Assembly (NCBI GenBank): GCA_030695925.1
Contig: JAUYOH010000031.1
Span: 5,188-69,187, forward strand
Source: Candidatus Omnitrophota bacterium
GTDB taxonomy: Bacteria; Omnitrophota; Gorgyraeia; Pluralincolimonadales; Pluralincolimonadaceae
Reading direction: 5' to 3'
Length of the DNA: 64,000 nt
Positions 4,253 to 41,101 of this stretch are shown here, piece by piece (positions within the stretch are counted from its first letter, which is position 1; each line of letters starts with the position of its first letter). A program made the translations under genes and the position numbers. The notes beneath the pieces were generated by a model. That model did no database searches. It had not been told where the DNA came from and saw only the letters and a list, made by a program, of their open reading frames with translations.

Positions 4253-5818
<1,566 letters not shown>

Positions 5819-5918
5819 CTAAGGAGTAATCCTTACAGAAAGACACTAGAAGTAAATAATCCTTACTTTCAAGCTATCGTTGCTTGGCTATTTAATTTTT
5901 TATTGGTGTACCAACTGC

Positions 5919-5995
5919 GGGCCCATAGCTCAGTTGGTTAGAGCACAGCCCTGATAAGACTGGGGTCAGTGGTTCGAATCCACTTGGGCCCACCA
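5919..5995 (+). tRNA. tRNA-Ile(GAT)
   Basis: cloverleaf, GAT anticodon, encoded CCA, in 16S-23S spacer. Confidence 0.96.
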
Positions 5996-6010
5996 GACTT
6001 AGAAAGATTT

Positions 6011-6086
6011 GGGCCTGTAGCTCAGCTGGAAGAGCACCTGATTTGCATTCAGGGGGTCAGGAGTTCAAGTCTCCTCAGGTCCACCA
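6011..6086 (+). tRNA. tRNA-Ala(TGC)
   Basis: cloverleaf, TGC anticodon, G3:U70 identity pair, CCA. Confidence 0.97.
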
Positions 6087-6167
6087 ATAACACAAAGAGA
6101 TTTATCGCTCTTTGACAACTGCATAGTAATTTAGGTCTTTTTGGCTACAATTTCGACGAGAATTTGT

Positions 6168-9174
<3,007 letters not shown>

Positions 9175-28222: not shown

Positions 28223-28420
28223 ATGGCTTTGCCCAAGAGAAAACATTCAAAAGCGAGAAGAGATAAATCAAGGACCCATCAGGCCCTGTCTAGTCCCCAA
28301 CTTACTAAATGCCCACAATGTTTTACGTTAATAAGACCCCACCATATCTGTCCCGCCTGCGGGTATTATAAGGGACGCAAAGTGGTGGACATAAAGGTTA
28401 AGAAAGAGAAGAAGAGATGA
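28223..28420 (+). CDS. rpmF: 50S ribosomal protein L32
   Basis: MALPKRK.S, CPQC...HH.C..CG.Y. Confidence 0.96.
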   Translation: MALPKRKHSKARRDKSRTHQALSSPQLTKCPQCFTLIRPHHICPACGYYKGRKVVDIKVKKEKKR

Positions 28421-29406
28421 GGATCGCTGTTGACGGAATGGGCGGTGACTACGCGCCTCAAGTAGTAGTCGAGGGCGCGGTTACGGCTGCTTTGGAATAT
28501 GGTTTTGATATCGTTATAGTGGGCGAGCGCTCAAAGATCGAAGCAGAATTATCGAAACTTCCTTCAGTGCCTTCTTCTATAAGCGTCCATCATGCCTCCG
28601 AGGTGATAGATATGCATGAGCCGGGCGCGGTAAGTGTCCGCGCCAAGAAAGACTCTTCTATATGGGTCGCAGCCGAACTAGCGAAAGAAAAAAAAGTGGA
28701 TGCGGTGGTCTCTGCCGGCAATACCGCCGCATTCGTAAGCGCGGCGATGCTTTCCCTGAAGCGGCTTGAAAACGTGGAACGCCCGGGCATAGCGGTGCTT
28801 GTACCCTCTCTTAAGGGCCCCGTACTAATGATAGATGTGGGGGCGACGATAAATCCCGAGGCGGAACACCTTGTTACTTTCGGTTTGATGGGTGAGGTAT
28901 ACGCGAAATATATTCTCAAAAAGAAAAATCCCGTGATAGGCCTCTTGAACATAGGGGAGGAATCTTCCAAAGGGCCGGAATTTTTGAAGGAGACGCACCG
29001 GCTTCTGGAATTAAGCAAATTCAATTTTCAGGGTAATGCCGAAGGAAGGGACATCTTCGCCGGCAAATTCGACGTAGTCGTATGCGACGGCTATACGGGA
29101 AACGTGGTTCTGAAGGTTGCCGAATCGATAGCGGGTATCATCGCTTCGTTTATAAAGGAAGAATTGAAGAAGGACCCATTAAGGATGCTCGGAGGCCTCT
29201 TGAGCGCGTCGGCTTTTGAAGCGGTAAAGAGACAAATAGACTATGCCGAATACGGCGGGGCTCCGCTCTTAGGGGTCAACGGCATATGTATAATCAGCCA
29301 CGGACGTTCCTCGGCAAAAGCGATAAAGAACGCTATAAGGGTCGCCGGAGAATTCGTCGAACATCAGGTAAACAAACATATTATGGAGGCGATAAAGGCC
29401 TTTTGA
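28417..29406 (+). CDS. plsX: phosphate acyltransferase
   Basis: IAVD.MGGD.AP, LLNIGEE..KG, GGAPLLG, SHGRS. Confidence 0.97.
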   Translation: MRIAVDGMGGDYAPQVVVEGAVTAALEYGFDIVIVGERSKIEAELSKLPSVPSSISVHHASEVIDMHEPGAVSVRAKKDSSIWVAAELAKEKKVDAVVSAGNTAAFVSAAMLSLKRLENVERPGIAVLVPSLKGPVLMIDVGATINPEAEHLVTFGLMGEVYAKYILKKKNPVIGLLNIGEESSKGPEFLKETHRLLELSKFNFQGNAEGRDIFAGKFDVVVCDGYTGNVVLKVAESIAGIIASFIKEELKKDPLRMLGGLLSASAFEAVKRQIDYAEYGGAPLLGVNGICIISHGRSSAKAIKNAIRVAGEFVEHQVNKHIMEAIKAF

Positions 29407-29407
29407 T

Positions 29408-30421
29408 ATGGTTACTAAAAAAGTTAAATATATCAAAAAGCAGGTAAGAAGGGCAGGGATAATCGGCCTCGGTTCATATCTGCCGAAAAAAGTCCTGACC
29501 AACACTGACCTCGAGAAGATGGTCGATACTTCGCCCGAATGGATAATGACCCGTACCGGCATAGCCGAACGCCGTATCGCCGACCCCAAAGAGGTGACCT
29601 CTGACCTGGCCGCAAATGCGGCCAAGCAGGCGCTAAGGAACGCTAAGTTAGCTCCCGAGGACGTAGAGTTGATAGTCCTCGCTACGATAACGCCGGATAT
29701 GCAGTTTCCGGCCACCAGTTGTTTTGTCCAGGCCAAAATAGGCGCGGCCAATGCCGCTTGTTTCGATATCAACGCCGCCTGCTCCGGTTTTATACACGGT
29801 TTAGTTATCGCCCAGCAATTTATCGCAAGCGGCACTTATAATAATGTATTGGTCATCGGCGTAGAACTACTGTCGCGTTTCATAGATTGGAAGGACAGGT
29901 CCACCTGCGTCTTATTCGGAGACGGGGCTGGCGCCGCGGTCGTCGCTCCGGTGAAGTCAGGCGGGATAATCTCCTCGTACCTAGGGGCTGATGGGAATAA
30001 AAGCGACCTTTTGATGTTTCCCGCCGGCGGTTCACGTATGCCCACCTCGCATAAGACGGTAAGCGAGGGGATGCACTCTTTGAAGATGCAGGGAAACGAC
30101 GTATTTAAATACGCTGTTCGTGTAATGGCCAATGCAGCTCATAAATCGCTGAAGAAAGCGGGCCTTAGCCCCAAGGACGTAGATTGCGTTATACCTCATC
30201 AGGCGAACATCAGAATAATCGAAGCGGTAGCCAAGAGGGTCGGCGTTCCGATGGAAAAGGTATTTGTGAACGTGGATAGGTACGGCAACATGTCGGCCGC
30301 CTCGGCTATAGTAGCCCTGTGCGAAGCGGTCAATGAGGGCCGCGTTAAGAAGGGCGATACCGTCCTCTTGGTGGCCTTCGGCAGCGGTTTTGTATGGGGT
30401 TCCAGCGTCATCAAATGGTAG
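29408..30421 (+). CDS. fabH: 3-oxoacyl-ACP synthase III
   Basis: AACSGF, FGDGAGA, PHQAN.RI, GN.SAAS. Confidence 0.97.
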   Translation: MVTKKVKYIKKQVRRAGIIGLGSYLPKKVLTNTDLEKMVDTSPEWIMTRTGIAERRIADPKEVTSDLAANAAKQALRNAKLAPEDVELIVLATITPDMQFPATSCFVQAKIGAANAACFDINAACSGFIHGLVIAQQFIASGTYNNVLVIGVELLSRFIDWKDRSTCVLFGDGAGAAVVAPVKSGGIISSYLGADGNKSDLLMFPAGGSRMPTSHKTVSEGMHSLKMQGNDVFKYAVRVMANAAHKSLKKAGLSPKDVDCVIPHQANIRIIEAVAKRVGVPMEKVFVNVDRYGNMSAASAIVALCEAVNEGRVKKGDTVLLVAFGSGFVWGSSVIKW

Positions 30422-31344
30422 ACCTCGCCCTGATCTTTCCGGGCCAGGGTGCCCAATATGTCGGCATGGGGAAGGAACTATACGAAGGATTTCCCGCCGC
30501 GAAAGTAATCTACGAAAAAGCGAACAATGTCTTGGGGTTTGATGTCGCCAAAATTTGTTTTGAAGGCCCCAAAGAAGAATTGACCCGAACGGACATATGC
30601 CAGCCCGCTATTTTAGTGACTTCAATAGCCGCTCTAAGGTCACTGGAGTTGGCCTTATCTTCACCCATCTCTCCGGCTGCAGTCTTGGGATTAAGCCTCG
30701 GTGAGTATACTGCTTTGGTATGCTCGGGTTCGTTAGGATTCGAGAACGCCGTTTCTCTTGTGCGTAAACGCGGCCAGTTTATGGAAGAAGCGTCGCGGCA
30801 GAATCCCGGTACCATGGCTTCCGTTATCGGATTGTCTGTCGAGGAGGCAAGGAAGGTCTGCATGGAGACAGGGGCCGAGGTGGCCAATGTAAATTGTCCC
30901 GGACAAGTCGTCATCTCGGGCACTAAAGAGAAAGTGGAGGCGGCCTCGGAATTGGCGAAGCATAGAGGGGCAAAGAGGGTCATACCTTTGGATGTAAGCG
31001 GCGCCTTCCATTCGAGTTTGATGCAGTCTGCCGCGGACAGATTAAAAGCGGAGCTCGATAATATAGAAGTAAAAGCGCCGAAGATAAAGATAGTGACAAA
31101 TGTCAGCGCCAAATATGAAGTTATGCCCCAAGAGATAAAGGATAATCTGGTCTCCCAGGTCAAATCATCGGTACTATGGGAGGACTCGATAAGGTACCTG
31201 GCGGGGCAGGGGGTCAGAAGGTTTATCGAGGTCGGGCCCGGAAAGGTTCTCTCGGGGCTCTTGCGCAGGATCGACCCTGCCCTTGAGACTTATAACATGG
31301 AAAATCCGGCTGATATCGCGGCCGTAAAAGAGGTCATCGGGTAG
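30415..31344 (+). CDS. fabD: malonyl-CoA:ACP transacylase
   Basis: FPGQGAQ, GLSLGEY, VSGAFHS. Confidence 0.96.
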   Translation: MVDLALIFPGQGAQYVGMGKELYEGFPAAKVIYEKANNVLGFDVAKICFEGPKEELTRTDICQPAILVTSIAALRSLELALSSPISPAAVLGLSLGEYTALVCSGSLGFENAVSLVRKRGQFMEEASRQNPGTMASVIGLSVEEARKVCMETGAEVANVNCPGQVVISGTKEKVEAASELAKHRGAKRVIPLDVSGAFHSSLMQSAADRLKAELDNIEVKAPKIKIVTNVSAKYEVMPQEIKDNLVSQVKSSVLWEDSIRYLAGQGVRRFIEVGPGKVLSGLLRRIDPALETYNMENPADIAAVKEVIG

Positions 31345-31353
31345 GAGGAAAAG

Positions 31354-32094
31354 ATGATTTTAAAGGACAGAGTTGCTTTAATAACCGGCGGGGCAAGGGG
31401 GATAGGGCGGGATATGGCGCTTCTCTTCGCTCAGGAGGGTTCGGATATCGCCATCTGTGATGTCAATCAGGAAGCCCTTGACGCGACCAAGAAGGAGATA
31501 GAGGCTTTGGGACGGCGCGCCGAGGGTTTTATCGTCGATGTCACTAACTTGGCACAGGTAGAGGACATGATCAACAAAATCCTTGACAAATTTCAGAAAA
31601 TTGATATACTCGTAAACAACGCAGGCATAACCAGAGACAGTCTCATTGTCAGGATGAGCGAGAAGGATTTCGACTCGGTCATCGCCGTAAACCTAAAGGG
31701 CACATTTAATTGCACCAAGAGCGTCTCGAAGGTTATGATGAAACAAAGATACGGCAAGATAATTTCCATCGCATCGATAATTGGGATTATTGGCAATGCC
31801 GGTCAGGCCAATTACGCCGCGTCCAAAGCCGGTATAATCGCTCTAACTAAGAGCGTGGCGAAGGAATTAGCCTCACGCAATGTCAACGTCAACGCGATAG
31901 CGCCCGGTTTCATAGAGACCGATATGACGGCGAAGCTGGCAGACGATGTAAAATCCCAGATGCTCACCCTGATCCCTTTAAATAGATTCGGCAAGGCAAT
32001 CGATGTGGCGAAGGCGGCTCTGTTTTTGGCATCGGACACGTCGTCCTATATAACGGGCCAGGTTATTCAAGTCGACGGCGGAATGGTGATGTAA
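31354..32094 (+). CDS. fabG: 3-oxoacyl-ACP reductase
   Basis: TGGARGIG, NNAGITRD, YAASK. Confidence 0.96.
   Translation: MILKDRVALITGGARGIGRDMALLFAQEGSDIAICDVNQEALDATKKEIEALGRRAEGFIVDVTNLAQVEDMINKILDKFQKIDILVNNAGITRDSLIVRMSEKDFDSVIAVNLKGTFNCTKSVSKVMMKQRYGKIISIASIIGIIGNAGQANYAASKAGIIALTKSVAKELASRNVNVNAIAPGFIETDMTAKLADDVKSQMLTLIPLNRFGKAIDVAKAALFLASDTSSYITGQVIQVDGGMVM
31583..31610 (+). promoter_or_regulatory. putative internal promoter in fabG
   Basis: TTGACA-16 nt-TATACT with TG extension. Confidence 0.5.
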
Positions 32095-32098
32095 GTGA

Positions 32099-32273
32099 GG
32101 ACATAAGTTATGGAGTTTTTGTTTAACCATTATAAACGACATAACTTATGTGTCCGAACTTACCCCCGCTGCTTCGCTTTGCGAAGCAAAGCGACGGGGG
32201 TCAAATTCGCACGCACAGAGTAGCGACTCTATGGAGAACAACTTACGTCACTGTCGTTCCGTAAGTCGTGTGC
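32099..32273. other. structured intergenic region upstream of acpP (inverted repeats/hairpins)
   Basis: 12-bp perfect IR 32101-32112/32140-32151; acccccg..tgcttcgc-ttt-gcgaagca..cgggggt; agagt-agcg-actct; acttacg/cgtaagt. Confidence 0.6.
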
Positions 32274-32299
32274 TCATTTGAAAAGGAGGAGTCAAAGAC

Positions 32300-32545
32300 A
32301 TGTCAGCTGTTGGAGATAAAGTAAGGGAGATAATAGCCAAGCAGTTAGGTGTAAAATTGGAGGAAGTGACCCCCCAGGCGACATTCATCGATGACCTGGG
32401 CGCCGATTCGCTGGATACGGTAGAGATCGTCATGGCGCTGGAAGAGGAATTCAAGCTCGAGATCCCGGATGAAGACGCCGAGAAGATGACCAACGTCGGC
32501 GAAGCCATAAAATACATAGAAGAAAAATCAGGCGCCAAGGCCTAA
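32300..32545 (+). CDS. acpP: acyl carrier protein
   Basis: [11 protein letters not shown]; strong SD AAGGAGGAG. Confidence 0.98.
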
Positions 32546-32556
32546 AATCGATATTA

Positions 32557-33804
32557 ATGGAAAAAAGAAGAGTAGTAGTAACCGGCTTAGGCGCCGTTAC
32601 TCCGCTGGGAAATTCCAAGGATGAGTTTTGGAAGGCCCTCCTTGAAGGAAAGAGCGGAGTAGGAAGAATGACACATTTTGATCCCACCGGGTTCGACTGC
32701 CAGATCGCAGCCGAAGCAAAGAACTTCGATCCTTCCAGACATATAACCAATGCCAAAGAATTAAGAAGAATGGAACGTTTTGTCCAGTTTGCGGTATGTT
32801 CGGCCATAATGGCGGTCGAAGACGCCAAACTTGATATATCCAAGGAAGACCCTTACCGTATAGGCGTCATAGTCGGCTCCGGCATAGGCGGATTAAAGAT
32901 AATCCAGGACCAGTCCATCGTCTGGCATGAAAGAGGTCCCTCGAGGCTGGCCCCGCTCCTCATCCCGATGCTTATCGTGAATATGGCGCCGGGACAGATC
33001 TCGATTACGCTGGGAATAAAAGGGCCGAATTCATGTATCGCCACCGCCTGCGCGACAGGCAATCACTCAATCGGGGAGGCATTCAGGATAATACAACACG
33101 GATATGCCGACGTGATGATATCCGGAGGGACCGAGGCGGCGATAATCGAGACGGCCGTCGGAGGTTTCTGCGCCCTTAAGGCGCTTTCAACCAGAAACGA
33201 CGACCCCGGACACGCGAGCCGTCCTTTTGACAAGGACCGTGACGGATTTGTGATGGGAGAGGGCAGCGGTATCGCGATACTTGAATCTTTGGAACACGCG
33301 CAAAGGCGCGGCGCTAATATTTACGCGGAAGTGGCGGGTTACGGCATGTCAGGCGACGCCTATCATATGACGGCACCGGATCCGGACGGAGAGGGTGCTG
33401 CCGCGTGCATGAGATTCGCGCTGAAAGACGGCGGCATAAAACTGGAAGAAGTCTCATATATAAACGCCCACGGTACCTCGACAAAGCTTAATGATAAGAT
33501 AGAGACATTGGCCATAAAGAAAGTATTCGGTCAGTACGCATATAAAATACCGATAAGTTCCACCAAATCAATGACCGGCCATCTCTTGGGCGCGGCAGGC
33601 GGGGTTGAGTTTATTGCCAGCGCGCTTGCGGTCAAGGAGGATATAATTCCTCCTACTATTAATTACGAGACTCCGGATCCGGAATGCGATCTGGATTATG
33701 TCCCCAATAAGGCGAGGAAGGCCAAGGTCAACGTGGCGATCTCTAATGCCTTTGGTTTCGGTGGGCATAATGCCTGCATCGCGGTCAAGAAGTTCCTATC
33801 CTAA
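32557..33804 (+). CDS. fabF: 3-oxoacyl-ACP synthase II
   Basis: VVVTGLG, TACATG, NAHGTST, GHLLGAAG, NAFGFGGHN. Confidence 0.97.
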   Translation: MEKRRVVVTGLGAVTPLGNSKDEFWKALLEGKSGVGRMTHFDPTGFDCQIAAEAKNFDPSRHITNAKELRRMERFVQFAVCSAIMAVEDAKLDISKEDPYRIGVIVGSGIGGLKIIQDQSIVWHERGPSRLAPLLIPMLIVNMAPGQISITLGIKGPNSCIATACATGNHSIGEAFRIIQHGYADVMISGGTEAAIIETAVGGFCALKALSTRNDDPGHASRPFDKDRDGFVMGEGSGIAILESLEHAQRRGANIYAEVAGYGMSGDAYHMTAPDPDGEGAAACMRFALKDGGIKLEEVSYINAHGTSTKLNDKIETLAIKKVFGQYAYKIPISSTKSMTGHLLGAAGGVEFIASALAVKEDIIPPTINYETPDPECDLDYVPNKARKAKVNVAISNAFGFGGHNACIAVKKFLS

Positions 33805-33823
33805 AATACAATTAGGAGCGAAA

Positions 33824-34978
33824 ATGGACTATTTATTAACTGAAGAACAGGTGATGATACGCGACTTGGCGCGCAAGATCGCGGTCGAGAAGGTTGCCCC
33901 GGTCGCGGCCGAGTATGACGAGAAAGAGGAGTTCCCGTGGCCTATAATAAAGATCCTCGCGGAAACCGACCTCTGCGGCGTATATATAGAGGAAAAATAC
34001 GGCGGGATGGGCGGCGGCGCTATGGAGCTCTGCCTTGTGACCGAGGAACTCTCGCGGGCTTGCGGCGGAATCGCGATATCTTTCGCGGCGACGGCGCTGG
34101 GGACATATCCTATAATATTATTCGGCAATGACGCGCAGAAACAAAAATATCTGCCGGATATAGCAAGCGGAAAAAAACTTGCGGCTTTCGGACTGACTGA
34201 AGCGGGTGCAGGCTCTGATGCCGGCGCCATAGCCATGACGGCAAGAAAAGAAGGAGATCATTATATATTAAACGGCACCAAGCAATGGATAACAAACGGC
34301 GGTGAAGCCGAGGTATACACGGTTATCGTGATGACAGACAGGGCAAAGGGCGCGAGGGGTGCCAGCGCTTTTATAGTAGAGAAGGGTACGCCGGGTTTTG
34401 ATTTCGGAAAGAAAGAGAAGAAATTGGGGATACGCGCCTCGTCTACTCGGGAACTCATCTTTAACGAGTGCAAGGTGCCGAAAGAAAATCTGCTGGGGCG
34501 CGAAGGCATGGGATTCATAGTCGCGATGCACACCTTCGATAAGTCGCGTCCGGGGGTCGCCGCGCAGGCGGTCGGCATCGCGCAGGGAGCGCTTGACCAC
34601 GCCGTAAAGTATTCGCGCGAGAGAAAGCAGTTCGGAAAGCCGATATCGGGCTTTCAGGGCGTGCAATTTATGCTCGCGGATATGGCGACCGAGACGGAAG
34701 CCGCGCGCGCGTTGACTTACGCGGTGGCAAGGATGGTGGATGCCGGCGTCAAGGATGTCGCTAAAGAATCGGCGATGGCAAAGCTCTTCGCTTCCGATAC
34801 GGCGATGAAAGTAACTACCGACGCGGTCCAGATATTCGGCGGATACGGTTATATGCGCGATTATCCGGTCGAGAAGTATATGCGCGACGCCAAGATAACC
34901 CAGATATATGAAGGCACAAACCAGATACAGCGCTCCGTGATAGCGCTAGAGTTGATCAAGGAACGTCTGAAAAAATGA
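33824..34978 (+). CDS. acyl-CoA dehydrogenase (butyryl-CoA dehydrogenase-like)
   Basis: FGLTE..AGSD, LNGTKQWITN, R.QFGKPI, QIYEGTNQIQ; SD AGGAG before ATG 33824. Confidence 0.93.
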   Translation: MDYLLTEEQVMIRDLARKIAVEKVAPVAAEYDEKEEFPWPIIKILAETDLCGVYIEEKYGGMGGGAMELCLVTEELSRACGGIAISFAATALGTYPIILFGNDAQKQKYLPDIASGKKLAAFGLTEAGAGSDAGAIAMTARKEGDHYILNGTKQWITNGGEAEVYTVIVMTDRAKGARGASAFIVEKGTPGFDFGKKEKKLGIRASSTRELIFNECKVPKENLLGREGMGFIVAMHTFDKSRPGVAAQAVGIAQGALDHAVKYSRERKQFGKPISGFQGVQFMLADMATETEAARALTYAVARMVDAGVKDVAKESAMAKLFASDTAMKVTTDAVQIFGGYGYMRDYPVEKYMRDAKITQIYEGTNQIQRSVIALELIKERLKK

Positions 34979-35772
34979 ATATAATAGTCTGTATAAAGCA
35001 GGTCCCCGATACGCAGGATATCAGGATAAATCCCGAGACGAATACTTTGATGCGCGAAGGCGTACAGTCGATAGTCAATCCTTTTGATATGTATGCTATC
35101 GAGGAAGCCTTAAGGATAAAGGAGAAGTTGGGCGGAAAAGTTACCGTCATTACGATGGGGCCCGATCAGGCGCAGGAAGCGCTGCGCGAAGCGGTCTCGA
35201 TGGGCGCGGACGAGATAATCCTAATGTCGGATCGGGCCTTCGCCGGTGCCGATACGTGGGTTACCAGTTATACGCTCGCGAAGGGAATCGAGAAATTAGG
35301 CAAATACGATTTGATAATCTGCGGAAAGCAGGCCATAGACGGAGATACGGCGCAAGTCGGCCCCGGCATCGCGGCACAGCTTGATATACCGCAGGTTACC
35401 TACGTGAAGAAGACGGAGGAGATAAAGGAGGGCATGGCCAGATTCGAACGTATGACCGAAGAAGGTTATGAGATCATCGAGACGCCGCTTCCTTGTCTGA
35501 TTACCGTCGTAAAAGAGATAAATATACCGCGGATGCCTTCACTCAAAGGAAAAATACGCGCGAAACAGGCACCCGTCGTTAAACTTGCCGCCAAGGACAT
35601 AACCGCTGAGCCCGGTAAACTCGGCTTGAAGGGTTCTCCCACGGTCGTAGACAAGATATTTGTTCCTCAGAAGAGGGCAGGCGGACAAATATTGCAGGGC
35701 GAGACGCAGGAAGTGGTAAATAAACTTGTAGAGGCGTTGAAGGACGTCGTAATTTCAGCGGGTAAGACATAA
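34975..35772 (+). CDS. etfB: electron transfer flavoprotein beta subunit
   Basis: IKQVPDT, FAGADT, GKQAIDGDTAQVGP. Confidence 0.96.
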   Translation: MNIIVCIKQVPDTQDIRINPETNTLMREGVQSIVNPFDMYAIEEALRIKEKLGGKVTVITMGPDQAQEALREAVSMGADEIILMSDRAFAGADTWVTSYTLAKGIEKLGKYDLIICGKQAIDGDTAQVGPGIAAQLDIPQVTYVKKTEEIKEGMARFERMTEEGYEIIETPLPCLITVVKEINIPRMPSLKGKIRAKQAPVVKLAAKDITAEPGKLGLKGSPTVVDKIFVPQKRAGGQILQGETQEVVNKLVEALKDVVISAGKT

Positions 35773-35773
35773 A

Positions 35774-37000
35774 ATGGCCGAACAGAATAATCCTCAAGAG
35801 TGTTCCATACGTATATTACTGGATAAATGTACGGGATGCACGTTGTGCGTTAAGAGCTGTCCGTTTGGCGCGATAACCATGCAGGACAAAAAGGCCGTCA
35901 TCGATTTCGGGAAGTGCACGTTATGCGGCGCGTGTGTGGCGACGTGCAAGTTCAAGGCGATAGAGCTTACTATCTGTAAGGTCCAGCCGAAAGCGGATTT
36001 GAGCGCCTACAAGGGCGTCTGGGTATTCGGCGAGCAGAAGAAAGGTAAAGTACAGAGCGTTGCATTCGAACTCTTGGGAGAAGGAAGGAAACTCGCCGAT
36101 GGGTTGGGCACCGAACTCGCCTGCGTATTGATAGGCGACGGTATGCAGCAGAAGGCGGAGGAGCTCTTTTGGCGCGGCGCCGACAAAATCTATCTGGTGG
36201 AAGATCCGAGGGTAAAAAATTATCAGGACGAGCCGTATACAAATATAATAGTCGAGTTAATAAAAGAGTTCAAACCAGAGATAGTCCTTTACGGCGCTAC
36301 TTCTATCGGAAGGTCGCTCGCGTCACGCATCGCGGTTAAAGTATACACGGGTTTGACCGCCGATTGCACTAAATTAGATATCGACAAAGAGAAGCGCCTT
36401 CTTCTCCAGACGCGTCCCGCGTTCGGCGGTAATATCATGGCTACGATCCTTTGCACAAATTATCGTCCGCAGATGGCGACTGTACGCCACAAGGTGATGA
36501 AGGAAGCGCCGGAAGACAAATCGCGGAAAGGTCAGATAATAAAGAAGACCTATCCCGATAGCGTATACGCCTCACGCACCAAATTAATCGATATAATCGA
36601 AGAGATATCCGAGACCGTAAACTTAGCCGAGGCCAATATAATAGTCTCGGGCGGCAGAGGGCTTGGCAAGGCCGAAGGTTTTAAGATTATTGAGGAACTC
36701 GCCAAGGTATTAGGCGGAGCCGTCGGGGCGTCGCGTTCGGCGGTAGACGCCGAATGGATACCTTATTCCCATCAGGTCGGCCAGACAGGCAAGACCGTAT
36801 GTCCCAAGGTCTATTTCGCGTGCGGGATATCAGGCCAGATCCAGCATCTGGCAGGTATGTCATCTTCGGATATAATAGTCGCGATAAATAAAGATCCCAA
36901 CGCGCCTATCTTCTCGGTGGCGACCTACGGTATAGTCGGTGACGCATATGAAGTCGTCCCCGCCTTAACTCAGAAATTCAGAGAAATTTTAAAGAAGTAG
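35774..37000 (+). CDS. etfA: electron transfer flavoprotein alpha subunit with N-terminal 2x[4Fe-4S] domain
   Basis: two CxxCxxCxxxC motifs, GLTADCT, TRPAFGGN, QVGQTG, GISG.IQH. Confidence 0.95.
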   Translation: MAEQNNPQECSIRILLDKCTGCTLCVKSCPFGAITMQDKKAVIDFGKCTLCGACVATCKFKAIELTICKVQPKADLSAYKGVWVFGEQKKGKVQSVAFELLGEGRKLADGLGTELACVLIGDGMQQKAEELFWRGADKIYLVEDPRVKNYQDEPYTNIIVELIKEFKPEIVLYGATSIGRSLASRIAVKVYTGLTADCTKLDIDKEKRLLLQTRPAFGGNIMATILCTNYRPQMATVRHKVMKEAPEDKSRKGQIIKKTYPDSVYASRTKLIDIIEEISETVNLAEANIIVSGGRGLGKAEGFKIIEELAKVLGGAVGASRSAVDAEWIPYSHQVGQTGKTVCPKVYFACGISGQIQHLAGMSSSDIIVAINKDPNAPIFSVATYGIVGDAYEVVPALTQKFREILKK

Positions 37001-37017
37001 CTCACAATACGTAGTTC

Positions 37018-37060
37018 ATAATAATGATGCCCTTTCCCACGAGGGCATCATTATTATTTT
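37018..37060 (+). terminator. intrinsic terminator after etfA
   Basis: 16-bp perfect stem ataataatgatgccct/agggcatcattattat followed by T's. Confidence 0.8.
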
Positions 37061-37116: not shown

Positions 37117-37815
37117 ATGTTAAAAGATAGTTTTAAAATATTTTTAATTGCTTTGTGCTATCTTTCTTTTTTTCTTGTTCCCCCTTCCCGTGCGGAGAAT
37201 TTTATCCTCAATAGTAGCTTCGAAGATACGTTGGAAAACAAGAATCCGGTCGCGAGTAAGGATGCCGATGGCATTAAATACTGGATGCGATGGCTGCATC
37301 AAAATAATGAACGTTCAGATATAGCCGCCCATACCGGAAAATATTCATTTAAGAATTGGGAGAGCGGCGGCATATATCAAAATTTCGCGGCGCCGATAGA
37401 AAAAGGCAAGACCTACCGAATCAGTTGTTATATGTATACCCCAACCAGCGACCGCCTCAAAGGCGGCTCATACGAAATAATAAAGTTAGAGTGGTTAGAT
37501 ACAAATGGTGTCGTCATGGGGCCGGATACGGTTCAGAGCCCCCATTTCGACAGCAACATGCCAGCCGATACTTGGCATTTAATATCCGTACAGGGGAGTG
37601 CTCCTGAAAAAGCGGTAAACGGACGAGCGGTCCTGGAATTCATACCGTCCCAAGGCGGTTCAGGTGCGATATTTTGCGATGATGTAGAAGTCGAGGTCCT
37701 TGGCGGGGAGGGAGGCCAATTGACGGTATCTAAAGAAGAGATTAAGAAGGAAGAGGTGGTAAAGGAAGAGGTGGTAAATGAAAAGGAAGACGAAACTATA
37801 GATTGGCAATGGTAA
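37117..37815 (+). CDS. exported protein with CBM4/9-like (galactose-binding fold) domain and acidic tail
   Basis: signal peptide ending SRA; N.ILNSSFE, AHTGKYS, DDV pattern; fold inferred. Confidence 0.6.
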   Translation: MLKDSFKIFLIALCYLSFFLVPPSRAENFILNSSFEDTLENKNPVASKDADGIKYWMRWLHQNNERSDIAAHTGKYSFKNWESGGIYQNFAAPIEKGKTYRISCYMYTPTSDRLKGGSYEIIKLEWLDTNGVVMGPDTVQSPHFDSNMPADTWHLISVQGSAPEKAVNGRAVLEFIPSQGGSGAIFCDDVEVEVLGGEGGQLTVSKEEIKKEEVVKEEVVNEKEDETIDWQW

Positions 37816-40265
37816 AGCCCTTATTACTCGCAGTATTATTTTCTTTCTTGTCGCTAACCGTTATAAATTTAGCGAATGCCGAAACAGACAGCGAGCTATT
37901 TTCCCGCGGAGAAAAATTTTTAAATAATAGCGAATTCGACAGCGCTATTAAAACTTTTCAGACCTTAATAGATAAATATCCTTATAGCAAATTCATCCCA
38001 TATGCCATTTATGATCAGGCCCTCGCTTTTTTGGAGATCGGTGAATACCAACAGGCGGAAGCGAATTTCAAGAGGATCGGCAAAGACTTTGCATATTTAA
38101 AAGATTTAATACCGAAGGCCCAGTTTGGGTTGGCAGAATGTTATTTAAGGATGGGGAAGGACGACCTGGCGGATTCGATCTATAGTTCCTTATTAAATAA
38201 GGATTTAGCCAAGGCGCCCGATGTGCTTTTTAACAAGGCATGGGTTTATTATAAGCAGAATAAATGGGATTTAGCGGCCGCATTTTTTAAAAGAATGGTC
38301 GAGCGCTATCCGACCGATCAGAAGGCATTAGACGCAAAGTTTATGCTGGCCAGCATCTATAAAGAGCAAGGAAGATATAAAAGGGCGGTAGATGTTTTTA
38401 AGACGATACCCAAGGATTCAAAGTTGGCCAACGATACCTATTTTAATCTGGGCGAGATCGCGTTTACGGTCAAGAATTATTCTAAGGCGGTAGAATTTTT
38501 CCGCAACGTAAAGCCCAAAAGCGAGATTTTCGGAGAAAAGGCAAATTTGGCAGAACTCGCGCGGTATCAAACGGGGCTGGCTTATTATGAACAGGGCAAA
38601 ATATATGAGGCGCGGATAATATGTGAGGATTTTCTGGAGAGATATCCCGAAAGTAAATTGACAAAGGATGTGTGCCATCTATTGGTCATCACTTATTTAA
38701 AACAAAGAAAAGTTGACGAGGCGGCCCAGGCATATAAAGATTACTCGCGCCTTGACCCGGAGGGCGCGCGGAAACTTAATATAAATTTCTTCATAGGGGA
38801 ATCCTTTTACGAAAAGGGCGAATATAAAGAGGCAATAGGATTTTATCAAAAGCAACTTGCGGAATCCAAAGAGGCCGAGTATACCGAGAAGGGCCTGGCG
38901 AGATTAGGGGAAAGCCACTTTTACCTTAATGACTATACTAAGGCAGAAGAGGCCTATAAGGAATATCTCAAGACGTATCCGAACGGGCCGTCAGCGCCGC
39001 ATTTCGCTTTTAGATTGGCGTATATCTTCGCGACTCAAAATAATTACGCTTCGGCGCTGAAGCTCTATAAGATGATCGAGGAGAAGTTCCCTAAGTTGGA
39101 GTATATAGATAATGTGATTTATAACATAGGGTGGTGCTATTCCCGGTCGGGAGAGTCCGGTGAAGCGCTGGCCTATTTTAAAAAATTCATAGAGAGCTAT
39201 CCGGAAAACAAATTGGCGTCGGCCACTACGTATGAGATCGGGAATATATATTTTAATAACAGGCAATACGCTCAAGCCGCCGAGTATTATAAGCAATTGG
39301 TTGAGAAATATCCCCAAAGCGAAACAATAGAAGCTGCTTCGTATCGGCTGGGCATCAGCTATCTATATTCCTCAAAACGGGATGAGGCATTGAACGAACT
39401 GAAGATCTTCTTAAACAAGAATCCTACCAGCCCATTAGCCGTTGAAGTCATAGATAGTATTTACAATATCTATTTGAACCAGAAAAAATACAGGGAAGGA
39501 ATCGCGGCCTTCGAGGAGCTGGCGAAAAAACATTCCCAGCAAAAAGCCATCTTGGCGGAACTGTACAGTTGCCTTGCAAATCTCTACCTTATTTCCGGAG
39601 ATTCGCCGCATGCCACCAAGACCGTGCAGGAAATGCTGTCGGCATATAATGATTTTTCAGATACGTCTCCTTCTGAAAATGCCGCTTATTCCATCGGCCA
39701 AATTTTAGTCGAAGCAAACAATAGTTCAGAGGCCGTTAAATTTTATAGCGACATTTTAGCCAGATATAAAGATGATACGCTGACCGAAGTGTCTTTATTC
39801 GGGAGGGGACAAGCGTATCTAAAATTAAAGTCATGGCAGGATGCAGCCGGAGATTTCAGCGAATTAATGTTTAAATATCCCAACACAAAATATGCGAGCA
39901 GAGCCAAATTAGGGATCGCGAATTCCTATTATAATCGCGATATCTTTAGCGAAGCGGTCAGATATTATAAAGATGTCGTCGATAATTACAAGGATGAGAC
40001 AACGGCCGAGGCCCTCTTCAAATTAGGCGACAGCTATTTTGCGCAAAAAAAATATGCTGAGTCCTTGCCAAACTTCCAGCGGGTTGCTATACTATATCCG
40101 CATCGCGAAGAATTGGCCGCCGAGTCCTTGCTTAAAGCCGGAGAATGCCAGGACAAACTGGGAAACAAGCAGGAAGCAAAAGCTTTATACGAGAAGCTCG
40201 TAGTCAAATACCCTAAAACGGAGGAAGCGAAAAAGGCGCAGGAGAGATTAAGGTCAATAAAGTAA
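37809..40265 (+). CDS. large exported tetratricopeptide-repeat protein
   Basis: signal peptide (ANA); many TPR_6/CpoB-like repeats ending ..KYP. Confidence 0.88.
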   Translation: MVKPLLLAVLFSFLSLTVINLANAETDSELFSRGEKFLNNSEFDSAIKTFQTLIDKYPYSKFIPYAIYDQALAFLEIGEYQQAEANFKRIGKDFAYLKDLIPKAQFGLAECYLRMGKDDLADSIYSSLLNKDLAKAPDVLFNKAWVYYKQNKWDLAAAFFKRMVERYPTDQKALDAKFMLASIYKEQGRYKRAVDVFKTIPKDSKLANDTYFNLGEIAFTVKNYSKAVEFFRNVKPKSEIFGEKANLAELARYQTGLAYYEQGKIYEARIICEDFLERYPESKLTKDVCHLLVITYLKQRKVDEAAQAYKDYSRLDPEGARKLNINFFIGESFYEKGEYKEAIGFYQKQLAESKEAEYTEKGLARLGESHFYLNDYTKAEEAYKEYLKTYPNGPSAPHFAFRLAYIFATQNNYASALKLYKMIEEKFPKLEYIDNVIYNIGWCYSRSGESGEALAYFKKFIESYPENKLASATTYEIGNIYFNNRQYAQAAEYYKQLVEKYPQSETIEAASYRLGISYLYSSKRDEALNELKIFLNKNPTSPLAVEVIDSIYNIYLNQKKYREGIAAFEELAKKHSQQKAILAELYSCLANLYLISGDSPHATKTVQEMLSAYNDFSDTSPSENAAYSIGQILVEANNSSEAVKFYSDILARYKDDTLTEVSLFGRGQAYLKLKSWQDAAGDFSELMFKYPNTKYASRAKLGIANSYYNRDIFSEAVRYYKDVVDNYKDETTAEALFKLGDSYFAQKKYAESLPNFQRVAILYPHREELAAESLLKAGECQDKLGNKQEAKALYEKLVVKYPKTEEAKKAQERLRSIK

Positions 40266-41101
40266 TGACAGTCAAAAAATTTAAACTACTTTTTAAGTTT
40301 TTATTTATGTGCCTTTTATTAAGGTGCGCTTTATCTTTTGCGCAGGACGAGATCATATTGAAAAACGGCAACGTTATAAGAGGTTCTATATTAAAAACGG
40401 ATAAGTCCGGTTTGAGCATAGAACTCTCTGAACCAAAAGCGATTATAGTGGTACCGCTGGCGAATATAGATAAGTTCAGGATAGAAATGCCGGATTTCTT
40501 CCGTATAGCGGAGGATTATTATCTCGCTAAAAAATATGATCAGGCTTACCCGCTCTATTTAAAGACTATTCAAAAATATGGGGGGTTTAACTGGGGAGAG
40601 GATGCCTATTTTAAGGCAGCCGATTGCCAGGTAAAGACAGGCGATGTCCCTAAAGCGATAGAGCTCTATAATGATTACATCGGTGATTATCCGGACGCCA
40701 AATTGGTAAATAAAGCCAGGATGAACTTAGCGGCTCTTTTATCCGGAAAGGGCGATTATGACAGCGCGATAAAAATTTACGACGCGGTGATACGTTCAAA
40801 AGATGAATTAAGCCGTCCCGATGCCTATTATGGAAGCGCGGAATCCTATTTTGCTCAAGGCGCATATGAGCAGGCTTTGGTTAATTACCTTAAGATAGAG
40901 GTGCTTTATTACGATAAGAGTAATTTAGTCGCGAATGCTAAATTTAAAAGCGGAGAATGTTATGAGAAATTAGGTGCAGGCGAAAAGGCGCTGGTAACTT
41001 ATAGGGAGATAATAGCTGGATTTCCTAAAAGCGACTTCGCCGGCAAATCGAAGGCTAAACTAAAGAAGTTAGAAGAAAGGGGGAAGAAAGATGCTACGTA
41101 A
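40265..41101 (+). CDS. exported TPR protein with N-terminal D.I.LKNG..I.G.I domain
   Basis: signal peptide (SFA) and TPR helices. Confidence 0.8.
   Translation: MTVKKFKLLFKFLFMCLLLRCALSFAQDEIILKNGNVIRGSILKTDKSGLSIELSEPKAIIVVPLANIDKFRIEMPDFFRIAEDYYLAKKYDQAYPLYLKTIQKYGGFNWGEDAYFKAADCQVKTGDVPKAIELYNDYIGDYPDAKLVNKARMNLAALLSGKGDYDSAIKIYDAVIRSKDELSRPDAYYGSAESYFAQGAYEQALVNYLKIEVLYYDKSNLVANAKFKSGECYEKLGAGEKALVTYREIIAGFPKSDFAGKSKAKLKKLEERGKKDAT

Follow-up and report, generated by a model that had tools for sequence, protein, structure and literature searches.

A Bcd/Etf-type gene trio as the predicted enoyl-ACP reductase of an Omnitrophota fatty acid synthesis operon

How does a bacterium reduce enoyl-acyl carrier protein (enoyl-ACP) when its fatty acid synthesis genes include no recognisable reductase for this step? 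The question is raised by a Candidatus Omnitrophota bacterium of the class Gorgyraeia (assembly GCA_030695925.1), from which we analysed a window of 64,000 nucleotides (contig JAUYOH010000031.1, positions 5,188 to 69,187 of the forward strand; coordinates below count from the first letter of this window). Here, a run of genes for type II fatty acid synthesis (FAS II) is followed by genes for an acyl-CoA dehydrogenase (ACAD) family flavoenzyme and for the two subunits of an electron-transferring flavoprotein (Etf), etfB and etfA. Among the variable steps of bacterial fatty acid synthesis, enoyl-ACP reduction is the best studied; it is also a drug target, and four classes of the reductase are known. 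With moderate confidence, we favour the reading that the ACAD-EtfB-EtfA trio is the predicted enoyl-ACP reductase of this FAS II, a complex like CarCDE and Bcd-EtfAB that is probably electron-bifurcating.

The fab run and the three genes that follow it

We assigned open reading frames (ORFs) of the window to families by profile searches; all named genes of the fab run lie on the + strand. The gene for phosphate acyltransferase, plsX (28417..29406; TIGR00182, 359.7 bits against a cut-off of 243), is followed by fabH for beta-ketoacyl-ACP synthase III (29408..30421; NF006829, 445 bits; TIGR00747, 436 bits), fabD for malonyl-CoA:ACP transacylase (30394..31344; TIGR00128, 338 bits) and fabG for 3-oxoacyl-ACP reductase (31354..32094; TIGR01830, 341.8 bits). 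FabG is the sole short-chain dehydrogenase/reductase (SDR) of the PF13561 type in the assembly. Next are acpP (32300..32545; TIGR00517, 112.5 bits), encoding an acyl carrier protein with a pI of 4.2 and a DSL phosphopantetheine site whose residues D36, S37 and L38 are invariant in the ACP alignment, and fabF for beta-ketoacyl-ACP synthase II (32557..33804; TIGR03150, 655.5 bits).

Only 19 nt (AATACAATTAGGAGCGAAA, 33805..33823, read directly from the sequence) lie between the fabF stop TAA and the ACAD start. They include an AGGAG ribosome-binding site, and a pattern scan found no terminator-like site in them. The ACAD gene (33824..34978) encodes 384 aa. Its listed ORF opens at 33698, and all family and structure matches begin at ORF residue 43; thus, we place the start at ATG 33824, with AGGAG ahead of it. 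ACAD and etfB (34975..35772; PF01012, 177 bits) overlap by 4 nt (ATGA), and a gap of 1 nt separates etfB from etfA (35774..37000; PF01012, PF00766 and Fer4 families). The first strong hairpin terminator of the predicted fab-ACAD-etf operon is found 3' of etfA. It is an intrinsic-terminator-like hairpin with a 17-bp stem and a U-rich tail (37018..37057, + strand), 18 nt 3' of the etfA stop, for which folding gave -25.4 kcal/mol (z = -8.54; 0 of 200 shuffles equally stable). The simple pattern scan missed this hairpin and listed only weak intragenic sites on the + strand (e.g., 33635 and 34060). The initial annotation, made from the letters of the window, had described the order plsX-fabH-fabD-fabG-acpP-fabF, the three close junctions beyond it and a first clear terminator after etfA; the ORFs, junctions and folded hairpin agree with this description. 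No RNA contigs bridging the fabF-ACAD junction were found in one metatranscriptome run, which contained 7% of the sampled sequence words and whose contigs were short (82-263 nt) and mostly 90-95% alike, as expected of contigs from relatives; we weigh this run neither for nor against co-transcription.

The three proteins belong to the ACAD and ETF families; the SDR, NMO and FabV folds of known enoyl-ACP reductases were not encountered among them. ACAD carries all three ACAD domains (PF02771, PF02770 and PF00441). The presumed catalytic Glu363, inside YEGT (aa 362-365), is invariant in 27 fab-linked homologues, and the motif is conserved in Bcd. Against solved structures, ACAD scored 432 bits with 5OL2_C (Clostridioides difficile Bcd), 421 bits with 4L1F (A. 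fermentans Bcd) and 323 bits with CarC (6FAH_C).

EtfB has DGDTAQVGP at aa 122-130, which we take to be the signature of a second FAD/NADH site instead of AMP. Its best solved matches are CarD (6FAH_B, 258 bits), LctB (240 bits) and 5OL2_B (238 bits). All of the top five (224-258 bits) are beta chains of bifurcating-type Etfs, and non-bifurcating ETF-beta chains reach at most 99 bits. EtfA has, as in the CarE/LctC subtype, an N-terminal ferredoxin domain with two Cx2Cx2Cx3C motifs for 2x[4Fe-4S], CTGCTLCVKSCP at aa 19-30 (35828-35863) and CTLCGACVATCK at aa 48-59 (35915-35950), as well as TRPAFGG at aa 213-219 (36410-36430). Its alignment with CarE (6FAH_A) spans residues 11-405 and takes in the ferredoxin domain (459 bits); against 5OL2 chain A it scores 307 bits. 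Overall, both Etf subunits score two to three times higher against solved bifurcating than non-bifurcating Etfs. The EtfA and EtfB motifs quoted in the initial annotation are present in the proteins it named, and the full-length CarE match and the beta-chain scores favour its assignment of the pair to the bifurcating Etfs.

On the scores of all three subunits against solved complexes, the trio is by family a module of the CarCDE/Bcd-EtfAB type. Electron bifurcation is established for modules of this type, and judged by its sequence the predicted complex probably carries out NADH-driven ferredoxin reduction too. CarCDE, the caffeyl-CoA reductase-Etf complex of Acetobacterium woodii (PDB 6FAH), reduces enoyl-CoA with NADH while reducing ferredoxin and has the same three-subunit make-up, including a CarE-like EtfA with a two-cluster ferredoxin domain. 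Unlike it, the trio lies in a fatty acid synthesis operon rather than a caffeate-respiration operon and has no CoA ligase or transferase attached, its ACAD is nearer Bcd than CarC, and the substrate that we propose for it is carried on ACP. Bcd-EtfAB (C. difficile 5OL2; A. fermentans 4L1F/4KPU) has the most similar ACAD, but its EtfA chains are without the ferredoxin domain that is present here.

Upstream of plsX we identified rsmD (start 26732), coaD (start 27287), yceD (start 27763) and rpmF, in this order on the + strand. The last, for ribosomal protein L32 (28223..28420; TIGR01031, 78 bits), heads the rpmF-plsX-fab run and overlaps the plsX start by 4 nt. Past the terminator, positions 37117-41101 (G+C 0.43-0.46, as against about 0.50) encode a protein of 232 aa that matched no family, as well as two proteins of 820 and 278 aa with TPR repeats of the YbgF/BamD-like kind.

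Enoyl-ACP reductases in the genome and its relatives

The window encodes no FabI, FabK, FabL, FabV or FabZ, as first noted from the letters, and the four reductases are unmatched in the whole assembly (1.70 Mb, 169 contigs, 94.56% complete). The assembly-wide PF13561 search returned only the FabG of the operon; FabI and FabL are excluded at the level of hidden Markov models. For FabK (TIGR03151, cut-off 453 bits) there was no match above the cut-off in the assembly. The matches of about 20 bits are HisA/F, PyrD (dihydroorotate dehydrogenase) and IMPDH-like proteins, which we rejected as FabK. FabV (PF12241) had no match in the assembly, although the same family also matched 0 of 14 control genomes, so the sensitivity of this search is unvalidated. 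A single MDR-family protein was rejected as an enoyl reductase as well, being Tdh/polyol-dehydrogenase-like (177 bits, under the cut-offs) and adjoining an aldolase.

Other parts of FAS II are encoded elsewhere. FabZ is found only as an LpxC-FabZ fusion of 443 aa, in an lpxD-lpxC/fabZ-lpxA-lpxI cluster on another contig (C103; L014:4736-8700), and AccA/AccD-like carboxyltransferases are present. Four matches to the alpha subunit of 2-oxoacid:ferredoxin oxidoreductase indicate by family that the metabolism is ferredoxin-based.

We identified an ACAD ortholog (65-95% identity) in 35 of 40 relatives from the class, and fabF lies directly 5' of it at 23 of 30 class loci. ETF is present in 36 of the 40 and absent from G024, G027, G030 and G032, which are four of the five genomes without ACAD. 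The fifth, G011, has ETF yet is without FabG as well as ACAD, so its fab region is probably unassembled. Known reductase types are few in this sample: the FabI model NF006369 matched one genome (G027, 334 bits), a FabL-like SDR occurs in two (G030 and, at 67% identity, G032), and FabV in none of the 40, its sole signals being 20-bit echoes from the pair of FabL-like SDRs. FabG is the sole PF13561 match in 20 of the 40, including genomes that are 97-100% complete in 7-30 contigs (e.g., G003, 98% complete; G004, 97%, 10 contigs; G007, 7 contigs; G009, 100% complete). Thus, the missing reductase is not an artefact of a fragmented metagenome-assembled genome (MAG).

Three class relatives without the trio carry a classical reductase type where the trio would be. 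Directly 3' of fabF, G027 has FabI and G030 the FabL-like SDR (best model FabL, 170 bits, under cut-off). In G032, the order is secretin - FabL-like SDR - smc; in G020, G031 and four named Omnitrophota loci it is secretin - ACAD - etfB - etfA - smc, and other genomes have fabF-ACAD-etfB-x-etfA-smc at the smc slot. By gene order, these are two separate in-situ swaps between the trio and a classical reductase type, in either direction.

The same complementarity extends to the phylum. Among 101 genomes (100 Omnitrophota and the genome under study), the ACAD ortholog is found in 46 (18 families), FabI in 30 (6 families) and the FabL-like SDR in 6 (3 families). No genome has more than one of the three, and there is likewise no overlap among the 41 class genomes. 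In G083, the matches are limited to an ACAD paralog at 46% and a fragment of FabI.

Across species-representative genomes of many phyla, we counted at least 595 relatives of ACAD, and we compared the neighbourhoods of the best 80 (66-87% identity). These belong to Omnitrophota, Nitrospirota (Thermodesulfovibrionales), Elusimicrobia (Endomicrobium), Margulisiibacteriota, Cloacimonadota, Bacillota, Thermodesulfobacteriota, Lentisphaerae, Planctomycetota, Spirochaetales and other groups. At 35 of these 80 loci ACAD adjoins genes of the fab set, and the arrangements are of at least four kinds: fabF upstream of ACAD (18 loci), plsX-fabH-ACAD-etfB-etfA-fabD-fabG-acpP-fabF (11 loci), plsX-ACAD-fabD and onward (4 loci), and fabD downstream of ACAD only (2 loci). 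In the Nitrospirota loci the trio stands between fabH and fabD, where some Firmicutes carry fabK. Since the linkage survives these rearrangements, we argue for a functional tie. At 13 of the 35 fab-linked loci ACAD is not directly followed by etfB. ACAD is also better conserved than the FabF of the same locus (e.g., 74% vs 59% at L074; 67% vs 56% at L144).

The initial annotation had proposed that the trio serves as the enoyl-ACP reductase, and it named three expectations: no canonical reductase elsewhere in the genome, a conserved linkage, and an anticorrelation of fabF-ACAD-etf with known reductases. The searches bear these out within their scope (for PF12241, the unvalidated one), and the slot replacements add to them; on gene content and order, the proposal is supported.

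Several variants of gene order deserve mention. In some Omnitrophota a PLD-like (cardiolipin-synthase-like) gene lies between fabF and ACAD (L151 = G039:C59, 4924-6393; also L081 and L082), and a URO-D-like gene lies between etfB and etfA (8529-9386 in L151). In G033 the order is fabF-ACAD-smc, with no etfBA adjoining, and this genome also gave the highest FabK-like score (284 bits). Within the samples, the NMO/FabK-like genes (340-378 aa) are confined to genomes that bear ACAD (G033, G034, G036, G037, G040, G060, G067, G074 and G124), and in a Spirochaetales MAG such a gene lies directly 3' of ACAD (L087:11180-12220).

Counter-evidence and alternative roles

A number of observations weigh against an enoyl-ACP reductase. 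By sequence, ACAD is nearest to CoA-dependent short-chain Bcd enzymes, and ACADs that depend on carrier proteins score lower (4IRN, 207 bits; PigA, 251 bits; MbtN, 75 bits). ACAD stands away from fabF at 7 of 30 class loci. Partial matches to the FabK family TIGR03151 occur in 8 of 40 class relatives (93-284 bits) and NMO/FabK-like genes (143-190 bits) in 7 of the 101 genomes of the phylum sample; every one of these genomes carries ACAD, and no class or phylum match reaches the FabK cut-off. In 19 of the 101 phylum genomes we identified none of ACAD, FabI and FabL-like SDR at the thresholds used. A genome with no recognised reductase is thus nothing rare in this sample, and a further reductase type may exist in Omnitrophota. 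These are 15 genomes of one family (f34), G024, G120 and two others. They are also without FabK at the thresholds, and FabV had no match in the five f34 genomes searched for it. One of the 19, G024, is 96% complete, and its fabF is followed by leuCD-leuB-asd. The relatives are not independent, so few events may underlie the complementary pattern, which could also partly track lifestyle. Finally, contamination of the assembly is 7.42%, one of its contigs (C96; L013:8274-19751) holds a beta-oxidation cluster, and the window EtfAB is its only ETF, so the pair could also serve the ACAD of that cluster. Co-folding of the ACAD dimer with ACP gave a score of 0.01 (mark 0.32) and no call either way, and we count it on neither side.

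We consider it unlikely, if the most serious of the alternatives, that the trio is a Bcd/Etf enoyl-CoA reductase or dehydrogenase of energy metabolism, placed after fabF by historical accident, with the true reductase unrecognised elsewhere. The CoA-dependent nearest structures fit such a role, as do the 45 of 80 homologous loci with no fab gene in the available flanks (many of them on short contigs) and the 19 genomes without a recognisable reductase, which allow for unknown ones. The best NCBIfam model for ACAD is also an acyl-CoA enzyme, acryloyl-CoA reductase AcrC, but its 477 bits fall below the cut-off of 640, and the AcrABC equivalogs (NF042972/NF042971/NF042970) are under cut-off for EtfB (252 vs 475) and EtfA (376 vs 600) too. 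The genes that accompany Bcd-EtfAB complexes, for crotonase, Hbd and thiolase, are neither beside this trio subfamily nor in most carrier genomes. We found no crotonase-family gene (ECH_1, E <= 1e-10) in 30 of 36 ETF-bearing class relatives, including all high-quality genomes of the same family, which makes a CoA pathway unlikely there. Neither crotonase, 3-hydroxybutyryl-CoA dehydrogenase nor thiolase adjoins the window ACAD, and among 81 neighbour proteins at 23 non-fab homologous loci there is no crotonase, 3-hydroxyacyl-CoA dehydrogenase or thiolase. A role in energy metabolism would also leave aside the fab linkage retained in at least four gene orders across phyla, the FabI and FabL-like SDR in exactly the same slots of trio-less genomes, and the zero co-occurrence.

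It is improbable that ACAD is an oxidative acyl-ACP dehydrogenase that forms double bonds for unsaturated fatty acids, as FabX of Helicobacter pylori does, with Etf as acceptor and a separate reductase needed. FabX belongs to a protein family different from ACAD. In favour of such an enzyme are the link of the trio to fab genes and the fact that we saw no FabA/FabB-type gene, and FabX gives a precedent for a backtracking dehydrogenase with an Fe-S cluster in FAS II (PMC8626469). However, an oxidative role leaves the missing reductase unexplained and gives no account of the mutual exclusion and slot replacement with FabI and the FabL-like SDR.

Slightly less probable still is a catabolic trio, in which Etf would mainly take electrons from the 644-aa very-long-chain acyl-CoA dehydrogenase (VLCAD)-like enzyme of contig C96 and the adjacent short ACAD would be its short-chain partner. 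The C96 cluster is a complete one (4HBT thioesterase, AMP-binding enzyme, thiolase, FadB-like protein and the VLCAD-like ACAD) beside cytochrome b/Rieske and SdhAB genes, and a single ETF in the assembly would leave it no other Etf. Against this, G027, G030 and G032 have a VLCAD-like ACAD and ECH with no ETF, so the VLCAD-like enzyme appears independent of the trio Etf, and most trio carriers lack VLCAD-like ACAD as well as ECH. In G017, from the same order, the fab-linked trio is retained, and beta-oxidation has a separate, full cluster that supplies an ACAD of its own (46% identity), an EtfAB without the ferredoxin domain and a FixC-like protein. The window Etf is by its sequence of the bifurcating, NADH-using type, and C96 could be part of the 7.4% contamination.

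Three side observations concern these clusters. The C96 cluster also adjoins a sulfite reductase-TusA fusion and ThiS/ThiF/JAB sulfur-carrier genes. In G017 (C25, L158), positions 5073-6256, between the paralogous ACAD and EtfB, encode a pair of short proteins with ETF domains (182 and 212 aa). The ETF-free genomes G027, G030 and G032 raise the question of the electron acceptor of the VLCAD-like enzyme.

Primer supply to FabH, with butyryl-CoA or another short acyl-CoA as the product of the trio, is the second role offered in the initial annotation and has very little probability: ACAD is Bcd-like and FabH is in the same run, but there is no source of crotonyl-CoA, since thiolase, 3-hydroxyacyl-CoA dehydrogenase and crotonase were not found in most carriers, and the reductase gap would stay open. 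Judged from gene content, both the butyrate/beta-oxidation reading and primer supply are poorly supported.

Predicted mechanism and significance

As an enoyl-ACP reductase, the trio would work as follows. FabZ, here as the LpxC-FabZ fusion, would supply trans-2-enoyl-ACP. ACAD, running in the reductive direction like Bcd and CarC, would reduce the double bond with electrons from its FAD, and the alpha-FAD of Etf would refill that FAD. Etf itself would accept the hydride of NADH at the beta-FAD of EtfB and bifurcate, with one electron passing downhill to ACAD and the other uphill through the two N-terminal [4Fe-4S] clusters of EtfA to ferredoxin. Three elements of this scheme are proposed by analogy: that the complex would act on enoyl-ACP and not on enoyl-CoA, that the Bcd-like pocket of ACAD would accept all chain lengths (to C16-C18), and that NADH would be the donor with ferredoxin co-reduced. 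The ACAD fold can take phosphopantetheine-tethered acyl groups on ACP or peptidyl carrier proteins, as in MbtN, PigA/RedW and the prolyl-ACP dehydrogenase 4IRN, although these are oxidative enzymes of secondary metabolism and are more distant from the window ACAD.

FabI and FabL (SDR), FabK (an NMO-type flavoprotein, whose gene lies between fabH and fabD in some Firmicutes) and FabV share the proposed role and the operon position, and FabI or a FabL-like SDR takes the identical slot in relatives. The trio differs from all of them in fold and cofactor logic, being a predicted three-protein, three-flavin, two-cluster complex rather than a single NAD(P)H enzyme, and it may conserve energy. It would be at most a functional analogue of these classes.

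We offer a wider proposal more tentatively, as a possibility somewhat short of even. To the four classes of bacterial enoyl-ACP reductase the trio could add a fifth, as yet undescribed: a bifurcating ACAD/Etf that would consume two NADH for each double bond and give back one reduced ferredoxin, so that energy would be conserved in every elongation cycle. Roughly half of Omnitrophota could then rely on it as their housekeeping reductase, together with many other anaerobic lineages (Nitrospirota/Thermodesulfovibrionia, Elusimicrobiota, Margulisiibacteriota, Thermodesulfobacteriota and others). In the accessible parts of the full-text literature outside subscription journals (including PMC4916218, PMC5317091 and PMC13126070), we found no description of an ACAD/Etf enoyl-ACP reductase. 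This suggests that the new aspect is the recruitment of a CarCDE/Bcd-Etf module as a biosynthetic reductase; the type of module is itself known.

If this reading is true, a Bcd/Etf-type reductase would account for the many anaerobe genomes without a visible enoyl-ACP reductase. It would give electron bifurcation a new role, in biosynthesis instead of fermentation, and what anaerobes are estimated to spend on their membranes, in redox and energy terms, would be revised. It would also correct the widespread annotation of such genes as markers of butyrate metabolism or beta-oxidation in metagenome-based metabolic reconstructions.

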